Counted from the first letter of the stretch, positions 4,295 through 24,516 are shown. The stretch is DNA of 64,000 nucleotides from Sphagnum compactum (GCA_965153455.1 OZ234493.1:26216213-26280212), one strand, 5' to 3'. Translations and numbers: made by a program. The notes: generated from the sequence alone by a model not told the origin.

Positions 4295-7200
4295 ATGGGA
4301 AATTCATATGGCCTCAAGGGAAAAGGAGTTGATCTTTCACAAGGGCCACCAAAAAGAAAGAGAGATGTTGGGCGGATCCCTGCTGCGACCGAGACACCTT
4401 CGGTCCCCGCTGAAAATCCTCCTTCAAGCTCTGGATGGCACAGCAATGTGATGCTTCTTCTTAATTTTATAATGAGCTTTCTTTGCACAGTTTTTTCTTG
4501 GGCTTTCCCATGGAAAGATGTTGTGCAGATACCTGCTGCGATTGAGACACCTTTGGTCCCTGCTGAAAATGCTCCTTCAAGCTTTGGAGGGCACGGCAAT
4601 GTGGTGCTTTTTCTTACTCTTATGATGAAGTTTCTTTGCACAATTTTTTCTTCGGCTTTCCCAAGTTACATGTTTAAGTTTGATTTTTCTTTGCTTTTTT
4701 AATTTTGTTTGGGTGTTGACAATTTTCCGTGACCCATACAACAACCATAGCTTATTGTCATGACAAAGCATCAAGAGAAGGAGGTCTAGTTCAGATTTGA
4801 ACTCCCAGCCAACAGCTTGGCAACCATACCCTTTAGCCACTAGGGTAACTGAATGTCCTCAATCATTTACAAGCTTCCTTGCCATACATTTTCACTTTGC
4901 CTACTTTCCAGTTTGTTTGTTTAGATAAAAACGATATGAAATGATGTTTTACACAGTAGGAAATGGAGTCATCATTATAGCCTCTTACATTAGGCCAGCG
5001 ACTCACTTGCTATAACAAGTAGGATCGGTGAAAGGGAAATTCGTCAATTGGCATTGACTAAGAATATATTGAACTTGTAAGGATTGGAACTTTCATTATA
5101 GATTATGAGTTAAGTTCAATGTGTAATCTTAATCCAACAACCAAAGGCAAATTATTAAACTGCTCTTGGACATTCTTATTGGGTTTGTGTCCCAATTCCT
5201 TAGGGGTCGGAGGCCTTAGTGGCCGAAATGTCGGGGAAAATGTCATGAAATACAAATGAACCAAACTAGATGGCTTAGTTAATCGACCCAAACTTGAAAG
5301 AATCCAATTCTGAGAATTAACCTTTATTGATGGACATATGTTCGATCTACTACGTAACAGTATTTACTTAATTGAACTATGTTTTGAAACTTTGACGCAT
5401 GTGAATGATCTTCATTTGTTAGTCCTGCAAGATACATTTGGCATTCTCCAATTCATCTATTATTGTCTTCTTGTTAGACTTAACATTTTCAATTAATTAT
5501 TTCTTTTATCTAACTACTATAATTTGTATATTGCATGTCTCCAATTTATTGTATAGTCAAATAATTTTCAAAAGATGTTTGAACAATTGTGTTGACTCTT
5601 TTTCATTTTCTTTGCAGAAATATGTAGTGCATGATTTAAATCCCACTTGTAATACCAATAATCCAAACTTGACCATCGTTTTTTTTCATGGGATTGCTTT
5701 TGGCACAAATGATGAATGGAAGGAAACATGGACAACATGCCCCACCAACAATAGAGAAGAGTGCATATGTTGGCCAGAAAAGTGGCTACCCGAAGACTTG
5801 AACAACAATGTTCGAATTTTATCATTGTCTTATGATTCTAAAATTGTGACAAGTGTTCACAATGATGTGATTGAAATTGGCAAAAACCTCATTCAAAGTT
5901 TGGTTACAAATTCAAGGTGTGACAATCTCTTCTATTTAAGGACACATTAATTACTTCTCCTTATGTATATTAAAGAAAATTGTTTAGATCTTTAGAATTT
6001 CTTAAATGTTGTGCAGGAGTTAATTGTTCATGTGTACTAGTATTGTGATACACACCAACAAGATTCAATTTATTTGAATTGTTAAATTCATGTAGGAGAA
6101 CATAAAATGGGGCTTATGTGCAAATGTTCTTGTTTGAAGATAATAACAAAGTCTATGTTCATATTATAAGTTCATGGTACAACTAGTTTGGTTTTGATGG
6201 CAAGTTTTAGGTCGAGCTTTTTGGAGTTTCATCTTTGGTAATGGAATTGAATTAAATTAAGTTCTATTAATACATGTGTAAAATTTGCATCCATTTCATT
6301 GCAAAAAAAAATTCCAAAAAGAATGTATCTTTTTTTTTTTAAAATTTTTTTTTGTTTTAACAATATTTCCAAGGTAACACAGAAGATGAATCGTGCATTA
6401 ACACAAGAATGTAAACGCCTACATACTTGAGCAATATAATTGTTTTACCAAAACATGGTTGTCACATTTTTTAGGTAAATTCATGGAATTGATAAATGAC
6501 AAATGACAAGCAAATCAATTACGGACTTATGGTTTAGGTCATGTGTGAATTGGAAAATTGTCCCCAAGTATAATAGGACAAATTTGTACATGTTAATACA
6601 ATGTTGATAATGGAATTTTATGCATTGTTGAATATTTTGTAGTTATCAATCGCTTTGGGATGGACCGGTGGCATTAATTGCTTATAGTTTTGGAGGTCTT
6701 ATACTCAAAAGCTTGGTGGTTGAAGCTCACAAACATGTACATCAAAGGTCAAAAAATACTTTGGATGATGAAGTCCACAAATGTTGTAAGACATTTTTGA
6801 ACAATGTGAAAGGTGTAATATTTTACGGTGTACCACATGTTGGCGGTACCCAATATTTATCAAATTATTTCATTTGGCAACATCAACAAATCAACACATT
6901 GAACAAGTGTGCAACCCAATCTGGTTTTTTAAAAAGTTTAAAATCTTTCAACCCACAAATGGAACACCTTTCAACAGATTTTAAAAATGCTATTCCTGAA
7001 GATGTCAACATTTATGCATTTGGTGAAGGATTACCACTCGACGAGAATTGGGTAAGATTTTCATTTCACCACATCGAAAGTTATCCAACTAAGTTCATTA
7101 ATTGAACATTTTTTGTATCGTCAAAATTTGTGTGGGATCATGTACTCAATACTTCTTAATACAATAATGTGGTGAATGGGTCATGTGTTTTATGAACTTT

Positions 7201-10200
7201 GTTTCATGAAATACTATTGATGGAAAGAAAATTTGATTGACTTCAAACATCATGAAATAGGTTTTAAATTTCGCCTTCATCAAATCAATTCCATACAAAT
7301 ATTTGTCATGAAAATCATATCATCATTAAAACATGTAAGATTAATGAGATCAAAAACCAATAACTTTGTGATTTGCTTGCCAAAAGGTTGAAGGAAATTA
7401 CTTTCACACAAAATATTTCATTGTTATTGAAACATCAATAGTTATTAAGCTATAGTTTCCACCACCATTTGGATTTACTGTGTTACTTATAAGTTCAAGC
7501 ATAGTTGAACAAACAAGTAAATGAGTTCCATTAACTTAATCTTTTGCTCATGCAGGGAATTTTAGTGCCATATGCCTCAGCTATTCAATTGTCAAACAAC
7601 AACCATTATAGAATCGAAGATGCTAATCATTTGACAATTTGCAAGCCACCAAACAAAAATCATCCAAGCTATTATTTATTGTTACAATGTTTGAGAATAT
7701 GTATGGAGGTAAAAACATCAAATCTAAGTCTTTTGACTTCATATATGTTCATGTTATTTTATACATTTTAGGTCATAGCACATTTGATGTGTATCGCATA
7801 TGCAATGTCATATATATTGATTATCAAATAAGAAAAATAACATATAAATGACCTTTGTTTTGTGAAATTTGACAGAAAAATATATTACTTCCACCTTTGC
7901 CATGTCATGAGGTGGCGTTGATTGATAAAGCAAAAGATATAAACATCTTGTTACAAAAGGAATCTATTGTTGGTTTGGTTGGAATGGGGGGAATTGGGAA
8001 AACCACTTTGAGCAAAAAATTCTATCATTTGTTCCACAACCAATATGACAAATCTAGTTTTTTGGAGGATGTGAATTCAAAGGACAATATCAATGATGTC
8101 ATAAAACAACTCCTACATGATTTGTGTGACAAAAAAATATCCAAGGATGAAAATGTGAACAAAGAAGACTTTGACAAAATTAGGCAATGTATGATATCAA
8201 AAAAAGTGTTAGTGGTGGTGGATGATGTTGGTAAAGTGGAGAACCTGTCCTTGCCAATTTTCATTGATAAGGCTGCTAGGAATGCAGCTTCTAAAAGTAG
8301 AATACTTGTGAATTGTCGAAATTGGCAAAATCTAAAATCTCACGTAAGTGAAGATGGAAAAATGATCATGAAATCTTTGGAGGAAGAGCAAGCAATGGAA
8401 CTTTTTATGTTCCATGCATTCGGTAATGCAAATCATGTTCCAACAAAATATTTCAAAGATATATGTAAGGAGATTATAAAAGCTTGTGGAGGGCTCCCTT
8501 TAAGTCTTAAAGTATTGGGTTCTTTTTTGTGCGATACTAAAGAATTGGAAATCTGGGAAGGCGCATTGAACAAATTGAAAAGTGGGCAAAGTTTCACGGG
8601 GGGCAATGATAATGAAAAACTTTGGAGTAAATTGAAGATATCTTATGAGTATTTGGATAAGGAACATCAAAGGATGTTTTTGGATATTGCTTGTTTCTTT
8701 GGTGGTTTGAAAATAAGGACAATTTGTCGAGCGTGGAATGGAGATTATTTACACCCAAAATTTGCATTGCAAAATTTACAACATAGATCTTTAATCCAAT
8801 GCGGAGAAGGTGGAATCTTGTACATACATGAACAATTACGAGACATGGGTCAAAATATTGCAATGGAACTTCCAATTATGAATCGATTTATATGGAAAGC
8901 AAATGAACCAAATTTTGTTTTACCAAACAATCAGGTTGTCACCATATTATTTCAATCTTATAATTTTATTTCGATTTTTTATGAATTTTTTTAATGTCCA
9001 AAAACAAATGTTTTAACTTTGAATCTTGATTTTATGAATAATGTTTTTTTAATAAAAATTAATAATAAGATGAAATGTTTTTTTTTATATTGATAATCCT
9101 TTTGTTTTCATTTCATGTGATAGGTGGTGGAAATTTTAGAAGGCATCTCATTGAAAAAATGTGTCAATTTGATTACATTGTCCCAAATCGGCTCCAAAGG
9201 ATTTCGTAACCTTAGGTTGGTTGACTTAACAGAAGCTTCACCAACTATTGTGGAAAATTGCATTCAAGGGCGAAATTTGAATAATGTTAAGTGGTTGTGC
9301 CTCAAAAATTGCATGATTCGAAAGTTGCCAAGTAATTTGTTTGATTGTTTACAATTACAAGTATTTGATTTGTCAGGGTGTTCCACCTTGAAAAAATTAC
9401 CTTCATCTATTGGCCGATTGAATACACTACAAGAGCTTGATTTGTCAAGGTGTTCCAATTTGAAGGAACTACCTTCATCTATTGGCCAATTGAATGCACT
9501 CCAAGAGCTCCATTTGTCAGGGTGGTCTAAGTTGAAAAAACTACCTTCATCTATTGGCCAATTGAATGCACTCCAAGGGCTTTATTTGTGGGGGTGTTCC
9601 AATTTGATAGAACTACCTTCATCTATTGGCCAATTGAATGCACTCAAAGAGCTTGATTTAAAAGGGTGTTCCAACTTGAAAGAACTACCTTCATCTATTG
9701 GCCAATTGAATGCACTCGAAAAGCTTGATTTAGAAAGGTGTTCGAACTTGAAAGAACTACCTTCATCTATTGGCCAATTGAATGCACTCCAAGAGCTTCA
9801 TTTGTGGGGGTGTTCCAATTTGAAAGAACTACCTTCATCTATTGGCCAATTGAATGCACTCCAAGAGCTTCATTTGTGGGGGTGTTCCAACTTGAAAGAA
9901 CTACCTTCATCTATTGGCCAATTGAATGCACTCCAAAAGCTTGATTTAGGAGGGTGTTTCAACTTGAAAGAACTACCTTCATCTATTGGCCAATTGAATG
10001 CACTCCAAAAGCTTTATTTAGGAGGGTGTTCCAACTTGAAAGAACTACCTTCATCTATTGGCCAGTTGAATGCACTTCAAAAGCTTTATTTGATAGGGTG
10101 TTCCAAGTTGAAAAAACTCCCTTCATCTATTGGCCAATTGAATGCACTTCAAAAGCTTGATTTAGAAGGGTGTTCCAACTTGAAAGAACTACCTTCATCT

Positions 10201-11103
10201 ATTGGTCAATTGAATGCACTCCAAGAGCTTCAGTTGTGGGGGTGTTCCAACTTGAAAGAACTACCTTCATCTATTGGCCAATTGAATGCACTCCAAGAGC
10301 TTTATTTAGAAGGGTGTTCCAACTTGAAAGAACTACCTTCATTTATTGGCCAATTGAATGCACTCCAAAAGCTTTATTTAGAAGGGTGTTCCAACTTGAA
10401 AGAACTACCTTCATCTATTGGCCAGTTGAATGCACTTCAAAAGCTTTATTTGGTAGGGTGTTCCAACTTGAAAGAACTACCTTCATCTATTGGCCAATTG
10501 AATGCACTCCAAGAGCTTTATTTAGAAGGGTGTTCCAACTTGAAAGAACTACCTTCATCTATTGGCCAATTGAATGCACTCAAAGAGCTTGATTTAAAAG
10601 GGTGTTCCAACTTGAAAGAACTACCTTCATCTATTGGCCAATTGAATGCACTCCAAAAGCTTGATTTAGAAAGGTGTTCGAACTTGAAAGAACTACCTTC
10701 ATCTATTGGCCAATTGAATGCACTCCAAGAGCTTCATTTGTGGGGGTGTTCCAACTTGAAAGAACTACCTTCATCTATTGGCCAATTGAATGCATTCCAA
10801 GAGCTTCATTTGTGGGGGTGTTCCAACTTGAAAGAACTACCTTCATCTATTGGCCAATTGAATGCACTCCAAAAGCTTTATTTAGATGGGTGTTCCAACT
10901 TGAAAGAACTACCTTCATCTATTGGCCAATTGAATGCACTCCAAAAGCTTTATTTAGATGGGTGTTCCAACTTGAAAGAACTACCTTCATCTATTGGCCA
11001 ATTGAATGCACTCGAAATGTTTGATGTAGAAGGGTGTTTCAACTTGAAAGAACTACCTTCATCTATTGGCCAATTGAATGCACTCCAAACGCTTAATTTG
11101 TAG
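4295..11103 (+). CDS. Alpha/beta-hydrolase-NB-ARC-LRR (HNL-type) NLR immune receptor, copy 1, ~1374 aa. Proposed exons: 4295-4447, 4529-4600, 5618-5916, 6643-7051, 7556-7708, 7876-8934, 9124-11103
   Basis: All joins are GT..AG and phase-consistent. SERAC1-like hydrolase motifs: VFFHG, WPEKWLPEDL..VRILSLSYDS, nucleophile elbow AYSFGG (Ser 6686), IFYGVPHVG, ANHLTICKP (His 7628). NB-ARC motifs: P-loop GMGGIGKTT, Walker B VVVDDV, CGGLPL, FLDIACFF, IHEQLRDMG. These are followed by 24 complete 24-aa LRRs. The first two exons are less certain; an alternative is a short MDICSIYY exon at 5330-5353. Confidence 0.9.
4363..4663 (+). repeat. 153-bp direct tandem duplication spanning the end of exon 1 and the start of the following intron of HNL copy 1
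   Basis: 4363-4510 aligns to 4516-4663 without gaps, encoding DVGRIPAATETPSVPAENPPSSSGWHSN vs DVVQIPAAIETPLVPAENAPSSFGGHGN. Confidence 0.9.
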
Positions 11104-11257
11104 GGGTGTTCCAACTTGAAAGAACTACCTTCATCTGCTGCTAATTGAATGCACTCCAAGAGCTTTATTGAAAAGGGTGTTCCAATTTGAAAGAACTACC
11201 TTCATCTATTGGCAATCAAATGCACTCCGAAAGCTTTATTTATGAAAGTGTTCCAAT
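9355..11257 (+). repeat. 72-bp coding tandem repeat (LRR array of HNL copy 1), ~27 units including 2-3 degenerate terminal units
   Basis: A near-invariant ~54-nt segment GGGTGTTCCAACTTGAAAGAACTACCTTCATCTATTGGCCAATTGAATGCACTC alternates with an ~18-nt variable segment. Confidence 0.97.
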
Positions 11258-14200
11258 TACTATATTGGTATAGAGTCGAAAACATTTTTTAACTAGTTGG
11301 TCAATTACTGAATATTCTCAACATCAACAATGTCTCTCCAAGTTGAACACTCAACTATGTTGATAAACAATGTGAAACATGTTTTCACAAAAGTGCCATT
11401 TTAAAAATATTTTTGGCATCTAAGGTTCTTTAATTGGCATATAGTCAAAACATTGATGAATGTTCAATTATTTTAATGACACCAACAACACACATATATG
11501 GATGATAAAATGTATTAAAGGACAAATCAAATGTAGTCTTGTTTGTAACTATTTATTTCAACTAGGTTAAACAATTAGTATGCAACTTTGATTTTAATAT
11601 TTATTTAAAATTATAATAACATTAACTTTCATGTAAATTTTATTTGTATAAATGAATGGTTTTTTTCTTGCATATAAATATTAAAATTTAATTTCAAAAT
11701 AAAGTTTTGGAAATTCTAAATATATGTTAGTAATAATGTTTATGTTCAATACACATGTAATTTATTATTTTTATGTACATCATTAAAACATATTAAGTAC
11801 TGACACATGACTAATAATATTGTGCAACTCTAATGTTTATTCATTTTTATATACATGATATCTTAATATTTGTTTAAAATTATGATAAAAACTCATTAAA
11901 CACTAATGTACCTTATGTCATTGGCCCAAGTTTGAATGCATTCAATTGAATTTTCCTTCGTAACCCCTTTTTGTAATTTGTTTGAATTTATAACAACAAT
12001 ACCCACTAATATTTCAATAATATAGTTCCCATTTTAGGTCTCAAAATTATGGAATCAACATTATTAAATCAAACTTGGTGAGGGCTTTCCAATAATAGCA
12101 AGAATGCCCCCATATTCCAACATAGTTTTCAATATTGGTTTTTTTAATAAATTCAATGAAAACATGCTTGAATAATCGATAAATTCTACACCATAACTCC
12201 AAACATTTTAAACCAAGTTGGTGCACCCCTACTCATTGAGAACTTTATGATGATATGTCCCATAGCATAACGTAAAATGCTATGGTTTGGGAGATTTCAT
12301 TGTGACAAAACAAAACAAACTACCTTCCTTCATGAACGAATAATGTAACATGTGTTGATGGCCCCAAGTGTGAACACACTCAAAGCATTTTCCATTCTAA
12401 ACCCATTTTTTAAAAAAATGGATTGAATTTTCAAAAACAAGATTCATTCAAAATTCAATATCTTCCGCACCTTAAATATGAAAATACTAAATAAACTTCA
12501 TTAAATTTGGCTCATCAATTATTTTCCAACGGCACCAAGTAAACCCTTAGATTCAAATACACTTTTTATGTATGATTTTATTAAGGTTTACCAAGAAAAT
12601 GATTCAATAATCAATAACCTTTGCATTGTAGCTCCAAAAATTCTCAAACCAAGTCAATGCACCCTACTCATTGTTAGGTTTTCAAATATATTAATAGCAT
12701 TGCATGAAGCAATTTAGTTCAAAAAATCTAAACATAATAAAACAAAACAAAACAAATTATCTACCTTCGTAAATAGATTAAATTACATGTAAGTTTTTTT
12801 TGTATCAAATGAATGGTTATGTATGATGCAAATAATTTTGTGCATATAAATATGTAATTTCAAAATAAAATTTAAAGAATTTATGAAATATGAGTTTGTA
12901 ATAATGAATGTTCAATATATGTAATTTATTATTTTTTTGTAATCAAGTTTTAATATACAAAAAATCAAGAAATGATACATAATTAATAATTTTGTGGAAC
13001 TGTAATGTTCATTCATTTTTATACATATGATGTCTTAATATATATTTAAAATAAAATGTAAATTCATTAATTATTAAGATCCATGTAAATGTTTTTTGTA
13101 TACATGAATGGTTCATTGGTTATGTAACAGGAAATTTTTTGTGCATATAAATATTACACTTTAATTTGAAAATAAAATATAAGCAATTTTGGAAATATAA
13201 GTCAATTTAATAATGTGTATGTTCAATACATGCATAATATATTATTTCAATGTAGATTCAATTTTAATTTACAACATCTCAAGTAATGAGGCTTAATTAA
13301 TATTTTTTGGGAATATGTTCAATACATTTGTAATTTATTATTTCCATGTAGATCAATTTTAGTTTACAACATATCATGTAATGATACATTATTAATATTT
13401 TTTATAAATTCAATATTTTTTCTAGTGTTGGTTATTAGTTCCAATAAAATTTTCATGTTTTCATTTTATTACCAATTATTTTATTATTTATTTATGATTA
13501 AATTATAAAAATTATTGAAATAATTAGAAATATATATTTGATAAATTATTATATAATTGAAGAGATTATTTTCATTTAACATTACTATGTTTTAAGATCT
13601 ATTTTTGTTATATTTTTCTTACTTAACCTCTATTATATTAATTCATCATAGTTCCAATAAGGTAGAGAAATATATGAATAATAGTTAAATAATTAACTAG
13701 CCTAGCCTAACTATTAGCTACAATAGTATTATTAATGTTTTTTTGGTTATTATAGCCAATTAGTATTTATCATTATATTTTAATAATCAATTTAATTAAA
13801 ATTTCATTTAAAATATATTATTGAATATTTATATTTGAGTTAATTCCTTGTTTTATGAAATATTGAAAACCCTATGGATTTGGAATTTTAAAAATATTCA
13901 ATAATAGTAATACTTATTTTTTAAAGACAATTACATTTAATTGCTGATTTTTTTTTAAACTAACTAATCACCATATTATTTAATATGATGGAAATATGTA
14001 TAATTGTTTACTTATACAACTATACAATTAAAAATAATTGATAAATAATTACTACAAGTAATTAGAGTAACTAACTAAACTTAGGCTAGGTAGATTATTA
14101 CTTTAAACTAGGCCTAATTAAGCTTAAACTAACTTATATAACTAGATTACAACTATTTGAGTTGCAATTAGGTTGTAACTGGATTACAATTAGGTTATAA

Positions 14201-14959
14201 CTAAATTTTTTATCCCAATTATTTGGCTTCCATTCCATGAATCCAAACTATTTAAAGGAGTGCATTAAGATTGTTGGAAAACATGATAAATATGAAAATG
14301 TAATAGTCATTTGGGATGATCCAATTAAAAAGGTTCAACCCTAAAGGTTCAACCAAATGAAATATAATTTCATTTATAATTACCACATGGCCTAAGTCTA
14401 GGTCTAGCATAGGTGTCTAGGTCCAACCCTAATTTAATCCTAAGTTGAACGGCCTATGTATAGGTTTAGCCTAGAGACATAGGTTTAAACCTAACCTATG
14501 ATTAAGCACCATGCGGCTTAACCTATTGATGTGGATGTGCCAAGTGTCATTTAACTATTTGTTGACCTTAACATTGTGACTATACCAAACAACTAGCCAA
14601 GTGTTCAGTTTACATAGTTGCAACATAGTTAAAATTGTAATTTTATTTTTGGGTGACGTCACGCCCAGTTAGCAGATGAAGTTCATTCAATAGTCGAATC
14701 TAGTTGAATCATCCCTCAACTAAATTGGTACAACAACTTTCAACTAAATTGGCAAACAATGGCATGTAGTAGCTATTGTTATGGTGTTGACACGTGGCAT
14801 ACACTTTTGACTAAATTTCATTCTCGACTTGTACTTGTTGACATTATTGGTTACCGATTGCAAAAAACAAGTTACAATTATATGTGTAGTTTTCGACTTG
14901 GTTTGTAATTGAATGCTAGTTGAAAACATAGTTACAAAATGGGGGAGTTTTTATTAGTG
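11258..14959. mobile_element. ~3.7-kb AT-rich insertion interrupting the LRR array of copy 1, probably a decayed, nested DNA transposon (CACTA-like ends)
   Basis: LRR sequence stops at tgttccaat (11257) and resumes at aactaccttcatct (14960). The ends read TACTA... and ...TAGTG and share inverted subterminal motifs (agtcgaaaac; tttt.aactag...caattac). Internal repeats include two ~430-bp copies (~11925-12340, ~12360-12780) and three copies of a catgtaa..gaatggtt..tgcatataaatat unit. There is no clean TSD. Confidence 0.5.
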
Positions 14960-15300
14960 AACTACCTTCATCTACTGGCCAATTGAATGCACTCTAGATC
15001 TTTACTTATAAGACTTCTCCAACTCGAGAGCGTCGTGAGAGAAATATTCATCTATTGGCAAATTGAATGCACTCAAAGTCCTTCATTTGTCAAGGTGTCC
15101 AATTTGAAATAACTATTTCAACTATTGGCCAATTGAGTACATTCCAAAAGCTTCATTTGTTAAGGTGTTCCAGTTTCAAAACATTATTTTCATCTATTGG
15201 TCATTGAATGCACTTAAAAATCTTGATTTGTGTGAATGTTTCAACTTGCAAGAATTACTTGCATGTACATTGGCAAATTAAATGCACTCCAAAAGTTTTA
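14960..15300 (+). pseudogene. Orphaned degenerate LRR units (~5) of the HNL family
   Basis: Repeated catcta(c/t)tggc(c/a)aatt(g/a)aatgcact... units with frameshifts and stops. They are more diverged than the coding arrays and are absent from the ORF track. Confidence 0.85.
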
Positions 15301-15960
15301 ATTGTTTTAAACAGTAGGAAATAGAGTCATCATTAGGCCAGCGACTCACTTGCTATAACAAGTAGAATCGGTGAAAGGGAAATTCGTCAATTGGCATTGA
15401 CTAAGAATATATTGAACTTGTAAGGATTGGAACCTTCATTATAGATTATGAGTTAAGTTCAATGTGTAATCTTAATCCAACAACCAAAGGCAAATTATTA
15501 AACTCCTCTTGGACATTCTTATTAGGTTTGTGTCCCAATTCCTTAGGGGTCGGAGGCCTTAGTGGCCGAAATGTCGGGGAAAATGTCATGAAATACAAAT
15601 GAACCAAACTAGATGGCTTAGTTAATCGACCCAAACTTGAAAGAATCCAATTCTGAGAATTAACCTTTATTGATGGACATATGTTCGACCTACTATGTAA
15701 CAGTATTTACTTAATTGAACTATGTTTTGAAACTTTGACGCATGTGAATGATCTTCATTTGTTAGTCATGCAAGATACATTTGGCATTCTCCAATTCATC
15801 TATTATTGTCTTCTTGTTAGACTTAACATTTTCAATTAATTATTTCTTTTATCTAACTACTATAATTTGTATATTGCATGTCTCCAATTTATTGTATAGT
15901 CAAATAATTTTCAAAAGATGTTTGAACAATTGTGTTGACTCTTTTTCATTTTCTTTGCAG

Positions 15961-18900
15961 AAATATGTAGTGCATGATTTAAATCCCACTTGTAATACCA
16001 ATAATCCAAACTTGACCATCGTTTTTTTTCATGGGATTGCTTTTGGCACAAATGATGAATGGAAGGAAACATGGACAACATGCCCCACCAACAATAGAGA
16101 AGAGTGCATATGTTGGCCAGAAAAGTGGCTACCCGAAGACTTGAACAACAATGTTCGAATTTTATCATTGTCTTATGATTCTAAAATTGTGACAAGTGTT
16201 CACAATGATGTGATTGAAATTGGCAAAAACCTCATTCAAAGTTTGGTTACAAATTCAAGGTGTGACAATCTCTTCTATTTAAGGACACATTAATTACTTC
16301 TCCTTATGTATATTAAAGAAAATTGTTTAGATCTTTAGAATTTCTTAAATGTTGTGCAGGAGTTAATTGTTCATGTGTACTAGTATTGTGATACACACCA
16401 ACAAGATTCAATTTATTTGAATTGTTAAATTCATGTAGGAGAACATAAAATGGGGCTTATGTGCAAATGTTCTTGTTTGAAGATAATAACAAAGTCTATG
16501 TTCATATTATAAGTTCATGGTACAACTAGTTTGGTTTTGATGGCAAGTTTTAGGTCGAGCTTTTTGGAGTTTTATCTTTGGTAATGGAATTCAATTAAAT
16601 TAAATTCTATTAATACTTGTGTAGAAAATTTGCATCCATTTCATTGCAAAAAAAATTTTCAAAAAGAATGTATCTTTTTTTTTTTTTTAAATTTCTTTTT
16701 GTTTCAACAATATTTCCAAGGTAACACAGAAGATGAATCGTGCATTAACACAAGAATGTAAACGCCTACATACTTGTACATTATAATTGTTTTACCAAAA
16801 CATGGTTGTCACATTTTTTAGGTAAATTAATGGAATTAATAAATGACAAATGACAAGCAAATCAATTACGAACTTATGGTTTAGGTCATGTGTGAATTGG
16901 AAAATTGTCCCCAAGTATAATAGGACAAATTTGTACATGTTAATACAATGTAGATAATGGAATTTTATGCATTGTTGAATATTTTGTAGTTATCAATCGC
17001 TTTGGGATGGACCGGTGGCATTAATTGCTTATAGTTTTGGAGGTCTTATACTCAAAAGCTTGGTGGTTGAAGCTCACAAACATGTACATCAAAGGTCAAA
17101 ATATAGTTTGGATGATGAAGTCCACAAATGTTGTAAGACATTTTTGAACAATGTTAAAGGTGTAATATTTTACGGTGTACCACATGTTGGCGATACCCAA
17201 TATTTATCAAATTATTTCATTTGGCAACATCAACAAATCAACACATTGAACAAGTGTGCAACCCAATCTGGTTTTTTAAAAAGCTTAAAATCTTTCAACC
17301 GACAAATGGAACACCTTTCAACAGATTTTAAAAATGTTATTCCTGAAGATGTCAACATTTATGCATTTGGTGAAGGATTACCACTCGACGAGAATTGGGT
17401 AAGATTTTCATTTCACCACATCGAAAGTTATCCAACTAAGTTCATTAATTGAACATTTTTTGTATCGTCAAAATTTGTGTGGGATCATGTACTCCATACT
17501 TCTTAATACAATAATGTGGTGAATGGGTCATGTGTTTTATGAACTTTGTTTCATGAAATATTATTGATGGAAAGAAAATTTGATTGACTTCAAACATCAT
17601 GAAATAGGTTTTAAATTTTCCCTTCATCAAATCAATTCCATACAAATATTTGTCGTGAAAATCATATCATGATTAAAACATGTAAGATTAATGAAATTAA
17701 AAGCCAATAACCTTGTGATTTGCTTGCCAAAGGGTTGAAGGAAATTACTTTCACACCAAATATTTCATTGTTATTCAAACATCAATAGTTATTAAGCTAT
17801 AGTTTCCACCACCATTTGGATTTACTGTGTTATTTATAAGTTCAAGCATAGTTGAACAAACAAGTCAATGAGTTCCATTAACTTAATCTTTTGCTCATGC
17901 AGGGAATTTTAGTGCCATATGCCTCAGCTATTCAATTGTCAAACAACAACCATTATAGAATCGAAGATGCTAATCACTTGACAATTTGCAAGCCACCAAA
18001 CAAAAATCATCCAAGCTATTATTTATTGTTACAATGTTTGAGAATATGTATGGAGGTAAAAAAATCAAATCTAAGTCTTTTGACTTCATATATGTTCATG
18101 TTATTTTATACATTTTAGGTCATAGCACACTTGATGTGTATCGCATATGTAATGTCATATATATTGGTTATCAAATAAAAAAGATAACATATAAATGACC
18201 TTTGTTTTGTGAAATTTGACAGAAAAATATATTACTTCCACCTTTGCCATGTCATGAGGTGGCGTTGATTGACAAAGCAAAAGATATAAACATCTTGTTA
18301 CAAAAGGAATCTATTGTTGGTTTGGTTGGAATGGGGGGAATTGGGAAAACCACTTTGAGCAAAAAATTCTATCATTTGTTCCACAACCAATATGACAAAT
18401 CTAGTTTTTTGGAGGATGTGAATTCAAAGGACAATATCAATGATGTCATAAAACAACTCCTACATGATTTGTGTGACAAAAAAATATCCAAGGATGAAAA
18501 TGTGAACAAAGAAGACTTTGACAAAATTAGGCAATGTATGATATCAAAGAAAGTGTTAGTGGTGGTGGATGATGTTGGTAAAGTGGAAAACCTTACGTCC
18601 TTGCCAATTTTCATTGATAAGGCTGCTAGGAATGCAGCTTCTAAAAGTAGAATACTTGTGAATTGTCGAAATTGGCAAAATCTAAAATCTCACGTAAGTG
18701 AAGATGGAAAATGATCATGAATTTTTTGGAGGAAGAGCAAGCAATGGAACTTTTTATGTTCCATGCATTCGGTAATGCAAATCATGTTCCAACAAAATAT
18801 TTCAAAGATATATGTAAGGAGATTATAAAAGCTTGTGGAGGGCTCCCTTTAAGTATTAAAGTATTGGGTTCTTTTTTGTGCGATACTAAAGAATTGGATA

Positions 18901-21900
18901 TCTGGGAAGGCGCATTGAACAAATTGAAAAGTGGGCAAAGTTTCACCGGGGGCAATGATAATGAAAAACTTTGGAGTAAATTGAAGATTTCTTATGAGTA
19001 TTTGGATAAGGAACATCAAAGCATGTTTTTGGATATTGCTTGTTTCTTTGGTGGTTTGAAAATAAGGACAATTTGTCGAGCGTGGAATGGAGATCATTTA
19101 CACCCAAAATTTGCATTGCAAAATTTACAACATAGATCTTTAATCCAAGGCAGAGAAGGTGGAATCTTGTACATACATGAACAATTACGAGACATGGGTC
19201 AAAATATTGCAATGGAACTTCCAATTATGAATCGATTTATATGGAAAGCAAATGAATCAAATTTCGTTTTACCAAACAATGAGGTTGTCACCATATTATT
19301 TCAATCTTATAATTTTATTTCGATTTCCTATGAATTTTTTTAATGTCCAAAAACAAATGTTTTAACTTTGAATCTTGATTTTATGAATAACGTTTTTCTA
19401 ATAAGAATTAATAATAAGATGAAATGTTTTTTTTATATTGATAATCCTTTTGTTTTCATTTCATGTGATAGGTGGTGGAAATTTTAAAAGGCATCTCATT
19501 GAAAAAATGTGTCAATTTGGCTACATTGTCCCAAATCGGCTCCAAGGGATTTCGCAACCTTAGGTTGGTTGACTTAACAGAAGCTTCACCAACTAATGTG
19601 GAAAATTGCATTCAAGGGCGAAATTTGAATAATGTTAAGTGGATGTGCCTCAAAAATTGCATGATTCGAAATTTGCCAAGTAATTTGTTTGATTGTTTAC
19701 AATTACAAGTATTTGATTTGTCAGGGTGTTCCACCTTGAAAAAATTACCTTCATCTATTGGCCGATTGAATGCACTGCAAGAGCTTGATTTGTCAAGGTG
19801 TTCTAATTTGAAGGAACTACCTTCATCTATTGGCCAATTGAATGCACTCCAAGAGCTTCATTTGTCAGGGTGGTCTAAGTTGAAAAAACTACCTTCATCT
19901 ATTGGCTAATTGAATGCACTCCAAGGGCTTTATTTGTGGGGGTGTTCCAATTTGAAAGAACTACCTTCATCTATTGGCCAATTGAATGCACTCGAAAAGC
20001 TTGATTTAGGAAGGTGTTCCAACTTGAAAGAACTACCTTCATCTATTGGCCAATTGAATGCACTCCAAAAGCTTTATTTGACAGGGTGTTCGAACTTGAA
20101 AGAACTACCTTCATCTATTGGCCAATTGAATGCACTCCAAGAGCTTTATTTAGAAGGGTGTTCCAACTTGAAAGAACTACCTTCATCTATTGGCCAATTG
20201 AATGCACTCCAAGAGCTGGATTTGTGGGGGTGTTCCAACGTGAAAGAACTACCTTCATCTATTGGCCAATTGAATGCACTCCAATGGCTTAATTTGGGCG
20301 GGTGTTCCAACTTGAAAGAACTACCTTCATCTATTGGCCAATTGAATGCACTCCAAGGGCTTTATTTGTGGGGGTGTTCCAATTTGAAAGAACTACCTTC
20401 ATCTATTGGCCAATTGAATGCACTCGAAAAGCTTGATTTGGGAAGGTGTTCCAACTTGAAAGATCTACCTTCATCTATTGGCCAATTGAATGCACTCGAA
20501 ATGTTTGATTTAAAAGGGTGTTCGAACTTGAGAGAACTACCTTCATCCATTGGCCAATTGAATGCACTCCAAAAGCTTTATTTGTGGGGGTGTTCAAATT
20601 TGAAAGAACTACCCTCATCTATGGGCCAATTGAATGCACTCCAAAAGCTTTATTTGATAGGGTGTTTGAATTTGAAAGAACTACCCTCATCTATTAGCCA
20701 ATTGAATGCACTGCAAGAGCTTCATTTAAAAGAGTGTTGCAACTTGAAAGAACTACCTTCATCTATTGGCCAATTGAATGCACTCGAAATGTTTGATTTA
20801 GAAGGGTGTTCCAACTTGAAAGAACTACCTTCATCTATTGGCCAATTGAATGCACTCCAAGAGCTTAATTTGTGCGGGTGTTCCAATTTGAAAGACCTAC
20901 CTTCATCTATTGGCCAATTGAATGCACTCGAAATGTTTGATTTAAAAGGGTGTTCCAACTTGAAAGAACTACCTTCATCTATTGGCCAATTGAATGCACT
21001 CGAAAAGCTTGATTTAGAAAGGTGTTTCAACTTGAAAGAACTACCTTCATCTATTGGCCAATTGAATGCACTCCAACAGCTTGATCTGTCGGGGTGTTGC
21101 AACTTGAAAGAACTACTTTCATCTATCGGCCAATTGAATGCACTTGAAAAGCTTGATTTAGGAAGGTGTTCCAACTTGAAAGAACTACCTTCATCTATTG
21201 GCCAATTGAATGCACTCGAAAAGCTTGATTTAAAAGGGTGTTCCAACTTGAAAGAACTACCTTCATCTATTGGCCAATTGAATGCACTCCAACAGCTTGA
21301 TTTGTCGGGGTGTTGCAACTTGAAAGAACTACCTTCATCTATTGGCCAATTGAATGCACTCCAAGAACTTGATTTGTGGGGGTGTTCCAATTTGAAAGAA
21401 CTACCTTCATCTATTGGCCAATTGAATGCACTCGAAATGTTTGATGTAGAAGGGTGTTTCAACTTGAAAGAACTACCTTCATCTATTGGCCAATTGAATG
21501 CACTCCAAGAGCTTAATTTGTGCGGGTGTTCCAACTTGAAAAAACTACCTTCATCTATTGGCCAATTGAATGCACTCCAAGGGTTTTATTTGTGGGGGTG
21601 TTCCAATTTGAAAGAACTACCTTCATCTATTGGCTAATTGAATGCACTTCAAGAGCTTTATTTAAAAGGGTGTTAAAACTTGAAAGAACTACCTTCATCT
21701 ATTGGCCAATTGAATGCACTCGAAAAGCTTGATTTAGGAAGGTGTTCCAACTTGAAAGAACTACCTTTATCTATTGGCCAATTGAATGCACTCGAAGAGC
21801 TTGATTTAGAAGGGTGTTCGAACTTGAAAGAACTACCTTCATCTATTGGCCAATTGAATGCATTCCAAGAGCTTGATTTAAAAGGGTGTTCGAACTTGAA

Positions 21901-22181
21901 AGAACTACCTTCATCTATTGGCCAATTGAATGCACTCCAAGAGCTTTATTTAAAAGGGTGTTGCAACTTGAAAGAATTACCTTCATCTATTGCCAATTGA
22001 ATGCACTCCAAGAGCTTTATTTGTGAGAATGTTCCAACTTGAAAGAATTACCTTCATCTATTGGCCAATTGAATGCACTCCAAGAGCTTTATTTAGAAGG
22101 GTGTTCGAACTTGAAAGAATTACCTTCATCTATTGACAATCAAATGCACTCCGAAAACTTTATTTATGAAAGTGTTCCAAT
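15961..22181 (+). pseudogene. HNL copy 2, 5'-truncated and disrupted. Exon homologs: 15961-16259, 16990-17398, 17903-18055, 18223-19283, 19472-~22181
   Basis: It has the same splice sites as copy 1. A 1-bp loss in an A-run (18708-18711) gives TGA at 18712-18714 within NB-ARC. In-frame TAA codons occur at 19907-19909, 21635-21637 and 21674-21676, and there is a frameshift near 21993. There is no homolog of the 4295-4600 exons. Confidence 0.85.
19703..22181 (+). repeat. 72-bp LRR tandem array of HNL copy 2, ~35 units
   Basis: It has the same constant segment as copy 1 but a different series of variable segments. Confidence 0.97.
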
Positions 22182-24516
22182 TTACTATATTGGTATATAG
22201 TCGTTGTAGCCCTATGCATTTTTCCTTTCGTGGGTATCAAATCCAAATCATAATTACTAAACTTCTATGTTGTTCAACATGAGATAATTGTTGAAACTTC
22301 TAGGGTCATTTATTTTCACTACATTTGGAGTTGTATTTCCTAACAAACCTCCAAATAGGATCCTTGGTCCTAAATTGTGTTAAACACATTGCCTTCAATT
22401 TGTTGATCCATTCATACTTTTTAGCCCATGTTGTACACAATGAATTGGATGTGGTATACCCTTGATGTGGTATACCATTGTCACAAAGACTCATAGGAAA
22501 ATGGTCTATTCTTTGCTTTTCCAAAATTCGTATGTTAATATCAAATTGACTTTTCACAAAATATGTTTCTAATTCAAAATTTACAATCTAGAAAAGGAAA
22601 GCAAATAATTTCAAAAGTCAAAACATTCATTAAACAAAAGAAAATTTTGTTACACCTTTTTGTGCCATAAGAAGGTTCCAATCCTTTGTCTTTAATGAAC
22701 ACAATTAAGGATCATAAGTTTTTCCCACAAACATTTTGTAAGTATGTTGGAGGAGATCTAAGAACTCATATATAAAATTTTAGAAAAATTAGGTCACAAC
22801 ACTTTGAAATACTTAAAATGAGGATGATTATGGTCATAACCTTGCAAGTGTGGTTCACAAAATGGTAGATCATTGTTTTCATCACAAAAAACTGTTAAAA
22901 ACTACTTAATTGCAAAAATGTTTAAATTTTTTAACTCAATTGCATGTTCAAATCATGATTGCTTTGTGTTTATTTCTTTGTTGACTTTTTGGGATTCTTT
23001 TCACCTTTTTTTAGTAGGTTGAGGGTTCAAAATACAATTTGAAAGATGTAAACTAACTTTGATGTAAAATTCAGTTTTATTCAAAACACAAGTATGATAG
23101 GTCGAATGTGTACACTTGATACCTTGTGTTGGAAATTGAACCATGTTGAGATCTTGAAGGCTCCTAGTTTTAATGTTTCAAAATGTTTAATTTCAACACA
23201 CTTTCATATGTGTGCAGGCTTAGGATAATGAGTGAAGGGAAAAAACAAAATAAATGTGCATAGTTGGGTGTGCAAGCTTTGGTCGGTGGGCAAATGGAAA
23301 CCTCCATTGAAACTTTTTAAAATTAAGTCCCCAAAGGAGTATAAATATAGATAGGACCTTCATTATTTTTAATTTGTCAACAATAGTTTGAGGTATAATC
23401 TTGTCCCATAGCCTTGTTATGTTCCTTTTGTGTTTATGTTTTCATGTTTTATCACAATAAAGTTTTGTTTACACACTTCATGTTCTTAGTTTTAATTTTA
23501 AATATGATTTTAAAAAAAACATAATCTTTTGTGTTTAAATTTATACTTATGTTTGTCTTTTCATCACTCATAATTTTTGTGCATGTGCACAACAATTGCA
23601 TTTGATGCTTATGTTAACTCTATCTAGTAACCTTAATAATAAAGATCCATTATTTAAATAATATTTAATTCTTATTTGTATTACATTGAGGAGCTCCACT
23701 TTCAATGCAAAAAATTTGACTTTAGATGATCAAGATTTGCATCTTAATTTTAAAATAATTACAAATTATTTTTATCATGGGCATTTGATGTTAAGGACAT
23801 CTCCATGAATTGGGTTGGTATCAAATTTTATTACATCCACCATAGAGATATTAAATGTTGGTTAAATGTTCTCACACCCCACCCATAAACATGATTTTTA
23901 AACAATATTTTATTGAAACACCATTTAAATGTCAACACCTAAGCCAATCATTGTAATCGACCAATTACAGGTAATCATTTTGATGATACCACCCTAGATA
24001 AAAATATATTATCATGTGCAAAAATGTAATGCCATAGTCAATTTTCACATTATTGTATTGTTATTCCTCATCCATTTTAATGATACAATCCATCAATGAA
24101 GACATCTTAATAGAAAAAAATAGAAACTACACCATGAACTTGTGAAGATGATGTTAATGGAAAGACAAATGTACCTCCTTTTACTAATTGTTCCTAAAGC
24201 TCAATGGGGGAGGGGATGGGGGGTTGTTTTGTGCATAAAAGAATAAGTTGATTATCAAGCATGACACCTAATTTTCCACATGTAAAGCATCATCTTTTTT
24301 TTTCATTTGTATATTTTGATCCCTCACCAAATTGAAAAAATCATGTTTACTAATGTCGTAATGATGCTAAATAAATAATAATTTACACAATCTGAAAGGT
24401 ACTTTCTAGTTTGTCAAAATAATTTTTATCGAATGAAATTACCCACCAACTTGTCCTTTCTATGTCACATTGTCCTTTTGCAATGTCACTGTCATGATGA
24501 TGCTTTATATAGGAGA

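Follow-up and report, generated by a model that had tools for sequence, protein, structure and literature searches.

Can an immune receptor gene rewrite nearly all repeats of its sensor while the remainder of the gene hardly changes, and would it need a dedicated machinery to do so? This question is raised by a locus in Sphagnum compactum (GCA_965153455.1, OZ234493.1:26216213-26280212), where two neighbouring gene copies carry very different LRR arrays. The window analyzed here, i.e., the whole stretch of 64,000 nucleotides, had originally been predicted to hold a repeat-shuffling diversification system with a pseudogene as module reservoir. The underlying observation, near-identical copies with rewritten LRR arrays, is confirmed. 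The candidate new diversification machinery, on the other hand, does not hold up on present evidence. The arrays probably diverged by ordinary in-register unequal exchange, slippage, and short conversion, as a plant NLR array with "high internal conservation" (HIC) and no special diversification machine. Coordinates are those of the window, and all features discussed lie on its plus strand, except for one conversion tract to which no strand applies.

Self-BLAST of the window yields one duplicated segment (4988-11258 versus 15331-21608), with a short extension to 4945 and 15303, respectively. As predicted, introns, hydrolase, and NB-ARC regions are near-identical in both copies: outside the arrays, 81 substitutions and five indels separate them over 4988-9343 (4356 bp), corresponding to 1.86% divergence and 98.1% identity. 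Between the copies lie 3.7 kb of unique AT-rich sequence and a decayed LRR remnant of about five units (14959-15305), which has a period of 70-80 and no ORF, shares 75-80% identity with the array units, and abuts the 5' homology boundary of copy 2. Beyond this remnant, tblastn detected no other gene remnants between the copies, and inverted repeats in 11200-15400, sought as possible transposon ends around copy 2, amount to one weak AT-rich pair.

Copy 1 (4295-11103) is an intact hydrolase-NB-ARC-LRR (Hyd-NLR) gene. Its six exons (4295-4600, 5618-5916, 6643-7051, 7556-7708, 7876-8934, and 9124-11103) form an ORF of 1401 aa with a single stop, at the ORF end, and all five introns are of the GT-AG type. 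Four of these introns (all but intron 1) were set by spliced polyA RNA reads of a close relative, which belongs to another lineage than the window's; the four GT-AG joints are covered by 193, 58, 106, and 32 reads and were transferred from copy-2 coordinates. Exon 1, and hence intron 1, was placed by the annotated protein P0002, which equals the copy 1 translation save for 263 aa skipped within the array. The exon region 7873-8994 matches the NB-ARC domain (Pfam PF00931, E 6.8e-35) and a Roq1-like winged helix (PF23282, E 1.4e-12), and the C-terminal LRRs match LRR_14 (PF23598, E 2.1e-151 on 9124-11100) with 24 in-frame units of 24 residues. For the N-terminal hydrolase, the match is to DUF676 (putative serine esterase) at E 0.0014 and 18.6 bits, under the cut-off of 20.3; the hydrolase exons taken singly gave no Pfam match, a PDB sequence match was not found either, and NCBIfam gave no confirmation. 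PF05057 is precomputed for the family members P0011, P0060, P0062, and P0120. A nucleophile-elbow-like YSFGG motif is visible in the copy 1 translation. Judged by its predicted domains, copy 1 encodes an immune receptor that would act inside the cell and belongs to the hydrolase-NB-ARC-LRR class of bryophytes, with the hydrolase domain being putative. The family is large: an NB-ARC search returned 4305 proteins at E <= 0.001, and the best 70 of these are nearly all Sphagnum paralogues, most with 60-85% identity.

Copy 2 (15303-22203), which spans from within intron 1 to the array end, is a pseudogene: a 5'-truncated, frameshifted, and stop-bearing duplicate of copy 1. It had been described as promoterless, and it indeed lacks the upstream region together with exon 1 and the start codon, while the splice sites of exons 2-6 are retained; tblastn located no second exon 1 in the rest of the window. 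Comparison of the copies also uncovered a 1-bp deletion in the NB-ARC exon (at 18707, relative to copy 1 position 8358) that shifts the frame and a 3-bp insertion at 18594-18596. In the fixed 72-bp register of the array, in-frame stops occur at 19907-19909 (unit B03), 21635-21637 (B27), and 21674-21676 (B28). A collection of 5.8 billion proteins holds no copy-2 protein.

Sequencing reads have little to say on whether copy 2 is silent. At the exonic diagnostic sites listed, the RNA reads of the relative carry the copy-1 letter throughout (70/70, 79/79, 72/72, 74/74, 71/71, 76/76, and 100/100, and at further sites 103/103, 99/99, 82/82, 76/76, 73/73, 70/70, and 33/33). This is uninformative on silencing because DNA reads of the same species label lack the copy-2 letters too, with the copy-1 letter in 143 of 163 Hi-C read observations over the 24 diagnostic sites listed. 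The comparison covers 40 of 259 difference rows, with rows agreeing with copy 2 not among them, and reads were mapped on 15250-19960 only (copy 2 minus most of its array) to sidestep the long repeat. All four read runs have a T at 15369, where both window copies have a C, and they thus stem from a different lineage.

Could the two copies be products of the assembly, either collapsed or expanded versions of one gene or two haplotypes or strains set in tandem? The best public run contains 0.45 of the sampled words of copy 2, where a genome with copy 1 only would have 0.51, and most diagnostic sites listed carry the copy-1 letter in the four runs, as just described for Hi-C. However, the fixed difference at 15369 places these runs in another lineage, and they are no test of this assembly. 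Over 16627-16718, moreover, contigs from two independent studies equal copy 2 letter for letter, against five substitutions and one indel in copy 1. The window contains no N, the copies are set apart by the unique spacer and LRR remnant, copy 2 begins inside intron 1, and a functional gene's allele would not be expected to carry disabling changes like those of copy 2. Mosses have a haploid gametophyte, which also counts against two haplotypes. All in all, we consider an assembly artefact extremely unlikely.

Turning to the arrays themselves, TRF reports a period of 72 with 0% indels in both, with 26.2 copies at 9375-11256 in copy 1 and 34.3 copies at 19713-22180 in copy 2, in agreement with the ~27 and ~35 units counted originally. 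Such a strict period is expected because the exchange would be in-register. In a fixed 72-bp register starting at 9379 (A01) and 19727 (B01), the copy-1 array comprises 24 in-frame units (A01-A24, 9379-11106) with a mean unit identity of 90.2% (nucleotide) and 83% (amino acid). Its stop codon (TAG, 11101-11103) is the hypervariable codon 23 of A24, and the frameshifted, decayed terminal units and the 3' end of homology follow at 11107-11278, as defined by alignment with copy 2. The copy-2 array holds 31 in-register units (B01-B31, 19727-21958; mean identity 88.3% and 79%), followed by the frameshifted terminal units B32-B34 and the 3' end of homology (21959-22203, by alignment with copy 1).

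Collinearity had been claimed only for units 1-4 and the last degenerate unit, which corresponds to the degenerate unit preceding A01 together with A01-A03, plus the tails. A01-A03 differ from B01-B03 by two, two, and one bases, and the tails (A24-A26 and B32-B34) align at ~89-94%. Past units 1-3, no three-unit block is common to both arrays, the best pair having 10 differences in 216 bp; the best two-unit blocks have five differences in 144 bp. A handful of large unequal crossovers would have left coarser blocks, a point against the recombination account preferred here. The seven modules named as exclusive to copy 2 (QWLNLGG, QELNLCG, QQLDLSG, EMFDLKG, QKLYLTG, EKLDLGR, and QELHLKE) all proved to be so, and the distinctive EMFDVEGCFN unit is nucleotide-identical in both copies, within an exact match of 117 bp (10972-11088 and 21392-21508).

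Within copy 1, the six-unit block A04-A09 (9609-10021) recurs 936 bp (13 units) downstream as A17-A22 (10545-10957), with seven mismatches in 413 bp and exact runs of 109, 100, and 111 bp. This duplication probably marks an in-register unequal exchange inside copy 1. Single units are identical as well (A06 and A19, A13 and A16, A21 and A22), and copy 2 has a two-unit recurrence of its own (B15-16 and B24-25, four differences in 144 bp). Most units find their nearest neighbour in their own array and not in the other one. Out-of-register identities between the arrays concern single units, namely A05 and B18 (no differences) and A23 and B24 (one base), and these likenesses are explained equally by shared ancestry or by exchange between the paralogues.

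The stretch 5426-6229, identical to 15769-16572 in copy 2, is the longest difference-free interval (805 bp) and comprises exon 2, for which identical translations had correctly been noted (5618-5916), and 505 bp of intron. When the 86 differences were placed at random, none of 100,000 simulations gave 805 bp, the simulated maximum being 724. To judge from this pattern, the tract probably reflects a recent gene conversion between the copies, of the ordinary kind.

How old, then, are the two copies? While keeping the ordinary mechanism, one may suppose that the true age of the duplication exceeds severalfold what 1.86% would imply, that at least one later gene conversion homogenised the 5' 4.4 kb (intron 1 to LRR unit 3), and that the arrays, with much more time to diverge, did not turn over exceptionally fast. 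The flank divergence is a mosaic, from 0% over 805 bp to peaks of 4-5% per 300 bp (variance/mean 1.5), and the switch from collinear to scrambled is sharp, at the A03/A04 boundary. In addition, the final 100 bp of orthologous sequence, made up of a distinctive decayed unit and 3' flank, show six mismatches and one indel, i.e., 6-7% (binomial P 0.003 versus 1.86%), and the two tail units before them differ by 8.5% and 11.3%. Critically speaking, however, tail units are unconstrained repeat DNA, which may have a higher mutation rate or have other units copied over it, and the divergence of the arrays in private states is just ~1.8%. Moreover, an old full copy would be expected to leave a diverged intron 1 and exon 1 ahead of the 5' boundary of copy 2, but an LRR remnant lies there instead. 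We give this older date somewhat less than an even chance. The original statement that array turnover far outpaces point mutation can therefore be kept in part only: the arrays are scrambled at the grain of single units next to flanks of 98.1% identity, but the contrast is partly overstated, given the 6-7% divergence at the 3' end.

The variation among units is concentrated in codons 18, 19, 21, 23, and 24. At these five x codons pN/pS reaches 2.2 in copy 1 and 2.0 in copy 2, versus 0.23 and 0.31 elsewhere. Synonymous diversity (pS) is equal at hypervariable and other codons (0.129 and 0.131 in copy 1, 0.162 and 0.148 in copy 2), and mutation is therefore not targeted. Nucleotide states private to one copy number 23 in copy 2 (2232 bp) and 12 in copy 1 (1728 bp), a total of 35 or ~1.8% against 1.86% in the flanks, so there is no excess of novel states, with the count underestimating divergence since homogenisation erases mutations. 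In copy 2, 16 of them fall in scaffold codons and seven in hypervariable ones, where a uniform spread expects ~16 and 7; this uniformity resembles neutral decay. Three of the seven modules listed above (EMFDLKG, QKLYLTG, and EKLDLGR) contain no private state at all. Selection on amino-acid change would thus hold variety at the five solvent-exposed x positions of LxxLxLxx, while the scaffold codons would be homogenised.

Did other loci contribute modules, as was originally thought probable? The private states (at the level of flank divergence) and a small family sample of proteins speak against it. Two database searches provided 219 proteins, of which 51, mostly from other species, have at least three close units (455 units), although their annotations may skip units as P0002 does. 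Of the 15 copy-2-only heptads, 13 are absent from these 51 proteins and two are present, and "EMFD" occurs in none of the 51. Seven heptads are common to copy 1 and copy 2, whereas each copy shares only three with any of the 51 others. At heptad position 6, the residues are E/W/K/G here and S/N/R in the remaining family. Among the family proteins sampled, the modules hence appear locus-specific, and an outside donor would not be needed.

Part of the copy-2 array (e.g., B12-B14, B08, and B19-B20) could still stem from family members at other genomic loci and have arrived by ectopic conversion. The size of the family and its many Sphagnum paralogues would allow for this, the scaffold CSNLKELPSSIGQLNAL is common to paralogues, and scaffold variants of orphan units recur there (SSISQLNAL in five proteins, NLRELPSS in seven, and GCCNLKEL in one), but these variants are single substitutions that are able to recur. 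The depth of contig words over B01-B03 in a relative, ~50x that of the gene body, is a weak hint of very many closely similar units. An imported tract would also fit the divergence of B12-B14: B14 has seven differences to its nearest own-array unit and nine to the nearest copy-1 unit (five and six for B13), and the three adjacent units B12-B14 carry nine private-state occurrences. By rough Poisson arithmetic that allows for the number of three-unit windows, this cluster is not significant, nor are private states in excess overall. Besides the 13 absent heptads, it counts against an import that family members largely have heptads of their own, with a median share of 17% recurring in another protein. 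We therefore consider such an import unlikely.

More far-reaching was the original suggestion that the promoterless neighbour could serve as a donor library. Templated conversion would transfer its modules into the expressed copy 1, and the pair would together make up a functional diversification system of two parts. The 805-bp tract illustrates that the copies do undergo conversion with each other, and pseudogene reservoirs are an accepted idea for NLR clusters (PMC3645687). Unit types are shared as well: EMFD-type units occur four times in copy 2 and once in copy 1 (with A23 and B24 one base apart and the 117-bp exact run), and E-K-L-D-L-type units occur six times in copy 2, with A05 equal to B18. 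However, the direction of transfer is unreadable from two sequences, and identical pairs fit plain orthology, as 1.3 differences per unit are expected at 1.86%. Each exact run between the arrays covers one heptad only, and 117 bp is near the ~123-bp ceiling of a one-module match.

The makeup of the locus likewise speaks against a donor system. Copy 1 is a complete gene with a complete ORF, and the 64 kb hold just one neighbour array and the five-unit decayed remnant instead of a cassette library. Copy 2 is decaying, with its three stops and uniformly spread private states, and shows no sign of maintenance; targeted variation is not seen. Among the window ORFs outside the copies, 10 were scanned with Pfam (two at 26.7-27.7 kb and eight of the 26 ORFs listed for 31-64 kb that reach 100 aa or more); no recombinase or deaminase turned up in these, the sole match being a glyoxal-oxidase domain. 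The likeness drawn to pseudogene-templated conversion and lamprey VLR is thus not borne out, and we judge a functional donor library to be quite improbable. It seems very improbable that, be it in germ-line cells or in the long-lived clonal gametophyte, single 72-bp modules of the copy-2 array are repeatedly copied into the expressed receptor. If true, a peat moss would renew the sensor surface of an NLR by a two-part, pseudogene-templated route, which would be the plant equivalent of diversifying antibodies from pseudogene templates.

The preferred explanation, ordinary recombination among the units, can be sketched as follows. Units that are 88-100% alike would misalign freely. Both within and between the arrays, slippage during replication, in-register unequal exchange, and gene conversion over short tracts would then duplicate, delete, or overwrite single units and small blocks, with such unit-level events being far more frequent than base substitutions. 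The unique-sequence flanks, meanwhile, would be kept alike by ordinary gene conversion, exaggerating the impression of identical flanks next to rewritten arrays.

The locus offers a clean, fully resolved plant NLR with a near-perfect tandem-repeat sensor, an architecture that has so far mainly been worked out in fungi. It illustrates that copies 98% alike elsewhere can differ at almost every repeat position and that annotation fails on such arrays, 11 units being left out of the deposited protein. For the immunity of mosses, the implication is that unit-level recombination may let Hyd-NLR specificities change quickly.

Compared with known systems, the locus resembles programmed templated diversification in concept only. 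Pseudogene conversion in chicken immunoglobulin genes and the assembly of lamprey VLRs are somatic, rely on a dedicated deaminase, and supply an incomplete or single germline gene from many donor cassettes. Here, too, a presumably silent neighbour with related modules lies beside a presumably expressed receptor gene, but the neighbour is a single, decaying one and the receptor gene is complete. Another parallel may be tomato Cf-2/Cf-5 (Hcr2), for which Dixon and colleagues in 1998 reportedly described near-identical 24-residue LRRs whose copy number varies between alleles and differs strongly between close homologues, ascribing this to unequal exchange within the repeat-coding DNA; these are said to be extracellular receptor-like proteins of an angiosperm and not NLRs.

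The bryophyte alpha/beta-hydrolase NLRs (Hyd-NLR or HNL) share the order of hydrolase-like domain, NB-ARC, and LRR, and the class is reported from bryophytes, Sphagnum among them (PMC11218826). The accessible text of that paper treats N-terminal domains and phylogeny, with no mention there of near-identical LRR arrays or their turnover. Our literature search found no paper on near-identical LRR arrays in Sphagnum NLRs, although such genes might be listed in the supplements of PMC11218826 or PMC13449251. In plant clusters of NLR and R genes, evolution proceeds through tandem duplication, gene conversion, and unequal crossing-over, with diversifying selection acting on the solvent-exposed LRR residues (PMC3645687, PMC12118082), and reviews of NLR clusters describe the processes invoked here, with pseudogenes discussed as passive reservoirs (PMC3645687). 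The locus fits in by its tandem pair of a truncated pseudogene beside a complete gene, its conversion between copies, and its raised nonsynonymous change at xxLxLxx. The LRRs of angiosperm NLRs are typically irregular, whereas here they are minisatellite-like with a strict 72-bp period and ~90% unit identity, and change therefore goes unit by unit.

This brings us to the fungal HIC NLRs, in which such repeat behaviour is known and which are stated to have counterparts in plants (PMC13449251). We assign the present arrays to the HIC type by the mean pairwise unit identities given above and not by Psim. Fungal HIC NLRs, represented by the HET-E/D/R-NWD family of Podospora, differ in several respects: the repeats here are LRRs instead of WD40, ANK, or TPR, the receptor encoded here is of the plant NB-ARC type and begins with a putative hydrolase domain, RIP-like mutation would not be expected in a moss, and array change is known here between paralogues, not individuals. 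In the Podospora family, sensor repeats are 80-100% identical, diversifying selection acts on a small set of hypervariable positions, and repeats come and go or change places, with unequal crossing-over of misaligned repeats proposed as the cause; repeat exchange among paralogues, pseudogenised ones included, is reported there as well (PMC13449251). The Sphagnum locus displays a comparable change in repeat number and order, seen between these two paralogues only, with 24 versus 31 in-frame units and the order lost past unit 3.

At this locus, a putative Hyd-NLR gene whose LRR sensor resembles a minisatellite lies beside a dead, headless copy of itself. The DNA is AT-rich, plant, and intron-bearing, and in a protein database search the NB-ARC exon of the intact gene (copy 1, 4295-11103) matched a large Sphagnum protein family, with P0002, a database protein labelled Sphagnum compactum, as the top match. 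Its introns were mapped from RNA joints of a close relative, whose spliced polyA reads reveal four GT-AG introns (193, 58, 106, and 32 reads), and exon 1 was taken from P0002, yielding forward-strand exons at 4295-4600, 5618-5916, 6643-7051, 7556-7708, 7876-8934, and 9124-11103. Every splice site is canonical, and the ORF of 1401 amino acids runs without interruption. The model agrees with P0002 at 1137 of its 1138 residues, apart from 263 array residues that P0002 skips: in the deposited protein (1138 amino acids), about 11 LRR units (9379-10170, units A01-A11) were modelled as an intron, probably because the repeat misled the annotation. Pfam recognises the NB-ARC, the LRRs, and a winged helix of the Roq1 type. 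For the N-terminal hydrolase-like domain the sole match, to DUF676, is below threshold; that Pfam family is present in relatives. Bryophytes, Sphagnum among them, have been described to possess alpha/beta-hydrolase NLRs (PMC11218826). Exon 1 contains a 153-bp tandem duplication at 4363-4663 (2.0 copies, 86% matches), due to which the annotated exon (102 amino acids) has roughly double the length seen in paralogues, for example P0003 and P0039, two other proteins of the family. The real donor site may lie at the equivalent position in the first 153-bp repeat.

Self-comparison of the window shows a single duplicated segment (approximately 4945-11278 and 15303-22203), the second part of which, copy 2, starts within intron 1. 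For exon 1 and all sequence preceding 4945, the window contains no second counterpart. The splice sites of exons 2-6 are retained, yet the NB-ARC exon has a 1-bp deletion at 18707, and the array contains in-frame stops in units B03 (at 19907), B27 (at 21635), and B28 (at 21674). No counterpart of the copy-2 protein was found in a collection of 5.8 billion proteins. Copy 2 is a promoterless pseudogene; it is taken to be the promoterless neighbour of the original prediction.

Besides a decayed LRR remnant at 14959-15305 (about five units, 75-80% identity, irregular period of 70-80), self-comparison of the 64 kb found no further sequence of this gene, and no other gene remnant was found around it. 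This remnant directly adjoins the 5' homology boundary of copy 2, and the 3.7-kb spacer between the copies shares no sequence with the DNA that follows copy 2 or with that preceding 4945; for both reasons, the layout is not that of a simple tandem duplication. The spacer is strongly AT-rich (22% GC at 12-14 kb) and contains direct repeats, degenerate and some 95-300 bp long (11621-13403, 73-86% identity). Further along, a glyoxal oxidase N-terminal domain (PF07250, E 4e-32) is encoded by an ORF at 49637-50521 (reverse strand), which belongs to an unrelated gene in a GC-richer region at 40-53 kb.

Four public runs were mapped to 15250-19960. At 15369 all four show T, in contrast to the C of both window copies, and therefore represent another lineage. 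The best public run holds 0.45 of the sampled words of copy 2, where a genome with copy 1 only would give 0.51. RNA reads of the other lineage carry the copy-1 letter at all listed exonic diagnostic sites; 66 of 71 reads retain the A at 18707, and 33 of 33 have CAA where B03 has its stop. Since copy-1 letters also appear in DNA reads filed under the same species (143 of 163 observations at 24 listed sites), this RNA result is uninformative on the silencing of copy 2. Contigs of two independent studies are identical to copy 2 over 16627-16718, where copy 1 differs by five substitutions and an indel, and copy-2-type sequence therefore exists beyond this assembly. Both RNA and DNA of the other lineage show a second variant at 16173, 17024, and 18423 (at 40-68%), positions where the window copies agree, and a 3-bp indel at 18594-18596 is split as well (26 of 67 RNA reads lack the 3 bp), which indicates that this lineage expresses one or more additional close paralogues or alleles. 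PolyA RNA of a related lineage also covers the junction of the LRR remnant and intron 1 (15250-15407; approximately 22 reads deep, in the orientation of the gene), all reads having C at 15275 and T at 15369. The covered stretch may be an unannotated exon, the 3' UTR of something upstream, or the result of LRR-like cross-mapping.

The arrays themselves were accurately described in the original prediction. Outside them the copies are indeed nearly identical, with a divergence of 1.86% (81 substitutions and 5 indels in 4356 bp). In both arrays TRF finds a period of 72 with 0% indels, at 26.2 copies in copy 1 and 34.3 in copy 2; in a fixed register this corresponds to 24 in-frame units in copy 1 (A01-A24, from 9379) and 31 in copy 2 (B01-B31, from 19727), followed by frameshifted units. 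A01-A03 differ from B01-B03 at 2, 2, and 1 positions, and collinearity is lost thereafter. Past unit 3, the best common three-unit block has 10 differences in 216 bp, against 4.0 expected for an orthologous block at flank divergence, and the best common two-unit blocks have 5 in 144 bp (2.7 expected). All seven variable 7-residue strings (heptads, or modules) quoted as specific to copy 2 are restricted to it, and the shared unit EMFDVEGCFN is nucleotide-identical in both copies, sitting inside an exact match of 117 bp.

Variation across the 55 units clusters at codons 18, 19, 21, 23, and 24, the x positions of LxxLxLxx, which in LRR structures face the solvent on the concave side, and codons 4-17 are near-invariant, synonymous sites included. 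Among units, pN/pS at the five x codons is 2.2 in copy 1 and 2.0 in copy 2, compared with 0.23 and 0.31 at the remaining codons. As pS is equal in both partitions (0.13-0.16), the variety at the x positions reflects amino-acid changes that were kept and not a locally raised mutation input. Long opposite-strand and other-frame open frames occur in both arrays (e.g., 20722-21585, reverse strand, 287 amino acids); these are a by-product of a stop-free 72-bp repeat, not genes.

The modules of copy 2 had been thought to come probably from other loci. Counting private states, i.e., nucleotides that only one of the two arrays has at the unit position in question, gives 23 in copy 2 (2232 bp) and 12 in copy 1 (1728 bp), and those of both arrays together make up about 1.8% of array length, equal to the flank divergence. 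In copy 2, scaffold codons contain 16 of them and hypervariable codons 7; a uniform spread predicts about 16 and 7, so that the pattern is consistent with neutral decay. Among the seven quoted modules, three are free of private states, being new combinations of copy-1 states, and the other four require one or two substitutions. Private states do cluster in B12-B14, and it is possible that a tract was imported there from elsewhere. In a small, annotation-dependent sample of 51 other family proteins with at least three close units (455 units), 13 of 15 copy-2-only heptads and 9 of 11 copy-1-only heptads were not found, and EMFD occurs in none of these proteins. The two copies have seven heptads in common, and each shares only three with any other protein; at heptad position 6 both have E, W, K, and G, as opposed to the family norm of S, N, and R. 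Across the family, heptads are mostly protein-private (median 17% shared). The private states and the heptads of this protein sample point to local evolution of the arrays, and they do not support an origin of the copy-2 modules in other loci.

Signs of such local copying can be found within the arrays. In copy 1, A06 equals A19, A13 equals A16, and A21 equals A22, and a six-unit block (9609-10021) recurs 13 units further on, the two stretches being mismatched at 7 of 413 bp; copy 2 holds older, two-unit duplicates. Most units have their nearest relative in their own array, not in the other. Unit identities, block duplications, and own-array similarity are the marks that in-register unequal exchange and concerted evolution would leave.

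Flank differences are mosaic: there are none over 805 bp (5426-6229, exon 2 and 505 bp of intron), a length reached by 0 of 100,000 random placements, and divergence peaks of 4-5% lie near this tract. The tract represents conversion, and copies 1 and 2 therefore exchange sequence. At the 3' end, the divergence of the final 100 bp that are clearly orthologous is about 6-7% (6 mismatches and one indel; binomial P = 0.003 versus 1.86%), preceded by two tail units that differ by 8.5% and 11.3%. Considering this 3' divergence against the 1.86% of the 5' flanks, together with the conversion tract and the mosaic, the duplication may be several times older than its 5' part implies, the latter having been homogenised later; the apparent speed of array turnover would then be lower. 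Alternatively, the duplication may be recent. Under either history the mechanism is an ordinary one.

The "rewriting" of the arrays is best explained by unit-level unequal exchange and conversion of the ordinary kind, which would reshuffle near-identical repeats, accompanied by diversifying selection at five of the codon positions. The pseudogene may occasionally have been copied into the gene; neither import from other loci nor a dedicated mechanism finds support. The proposed repeat-shuffling diversification system was likened to programmed systems (pseudogene-templated conversion, lamprey VLR cassettes), which are defined by an incomplete acceptor gene, a cassette library, targeted change, a dedicated enzyme, and somatic variants; here the gene is complete, neither a cassette library nor targeted change is seen, and Pfam scans of ten window ORFs outside the two copies gave no recombinase or deaminase. 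LRR copy-number change of the kind seen between the two copies is reportedly known from tomato Cf-2/Cf-5. Plant NLR reviews name gene conversion and unequal crossing-over, as well as truncated pseudogenes next to genes, and regard pseudogenes as potential reservoirs (PMC3645687; PMC12118082). The closest described system is that of the fungal NLRs with high internal conservation (HIC) repeats, which are 80-100% identical with a few hypervariable positions under diversifying selection, and undergo loss, gain, shuffling, and exchange between paralogues, with unequal crossing-over as the proposed cause (PMC13449251). The same paper states that HIC NLRs occur in plants too (PMC13449251), and the locus is of interest mainly as a clean plant example of such HIC-type NLR dynamics.
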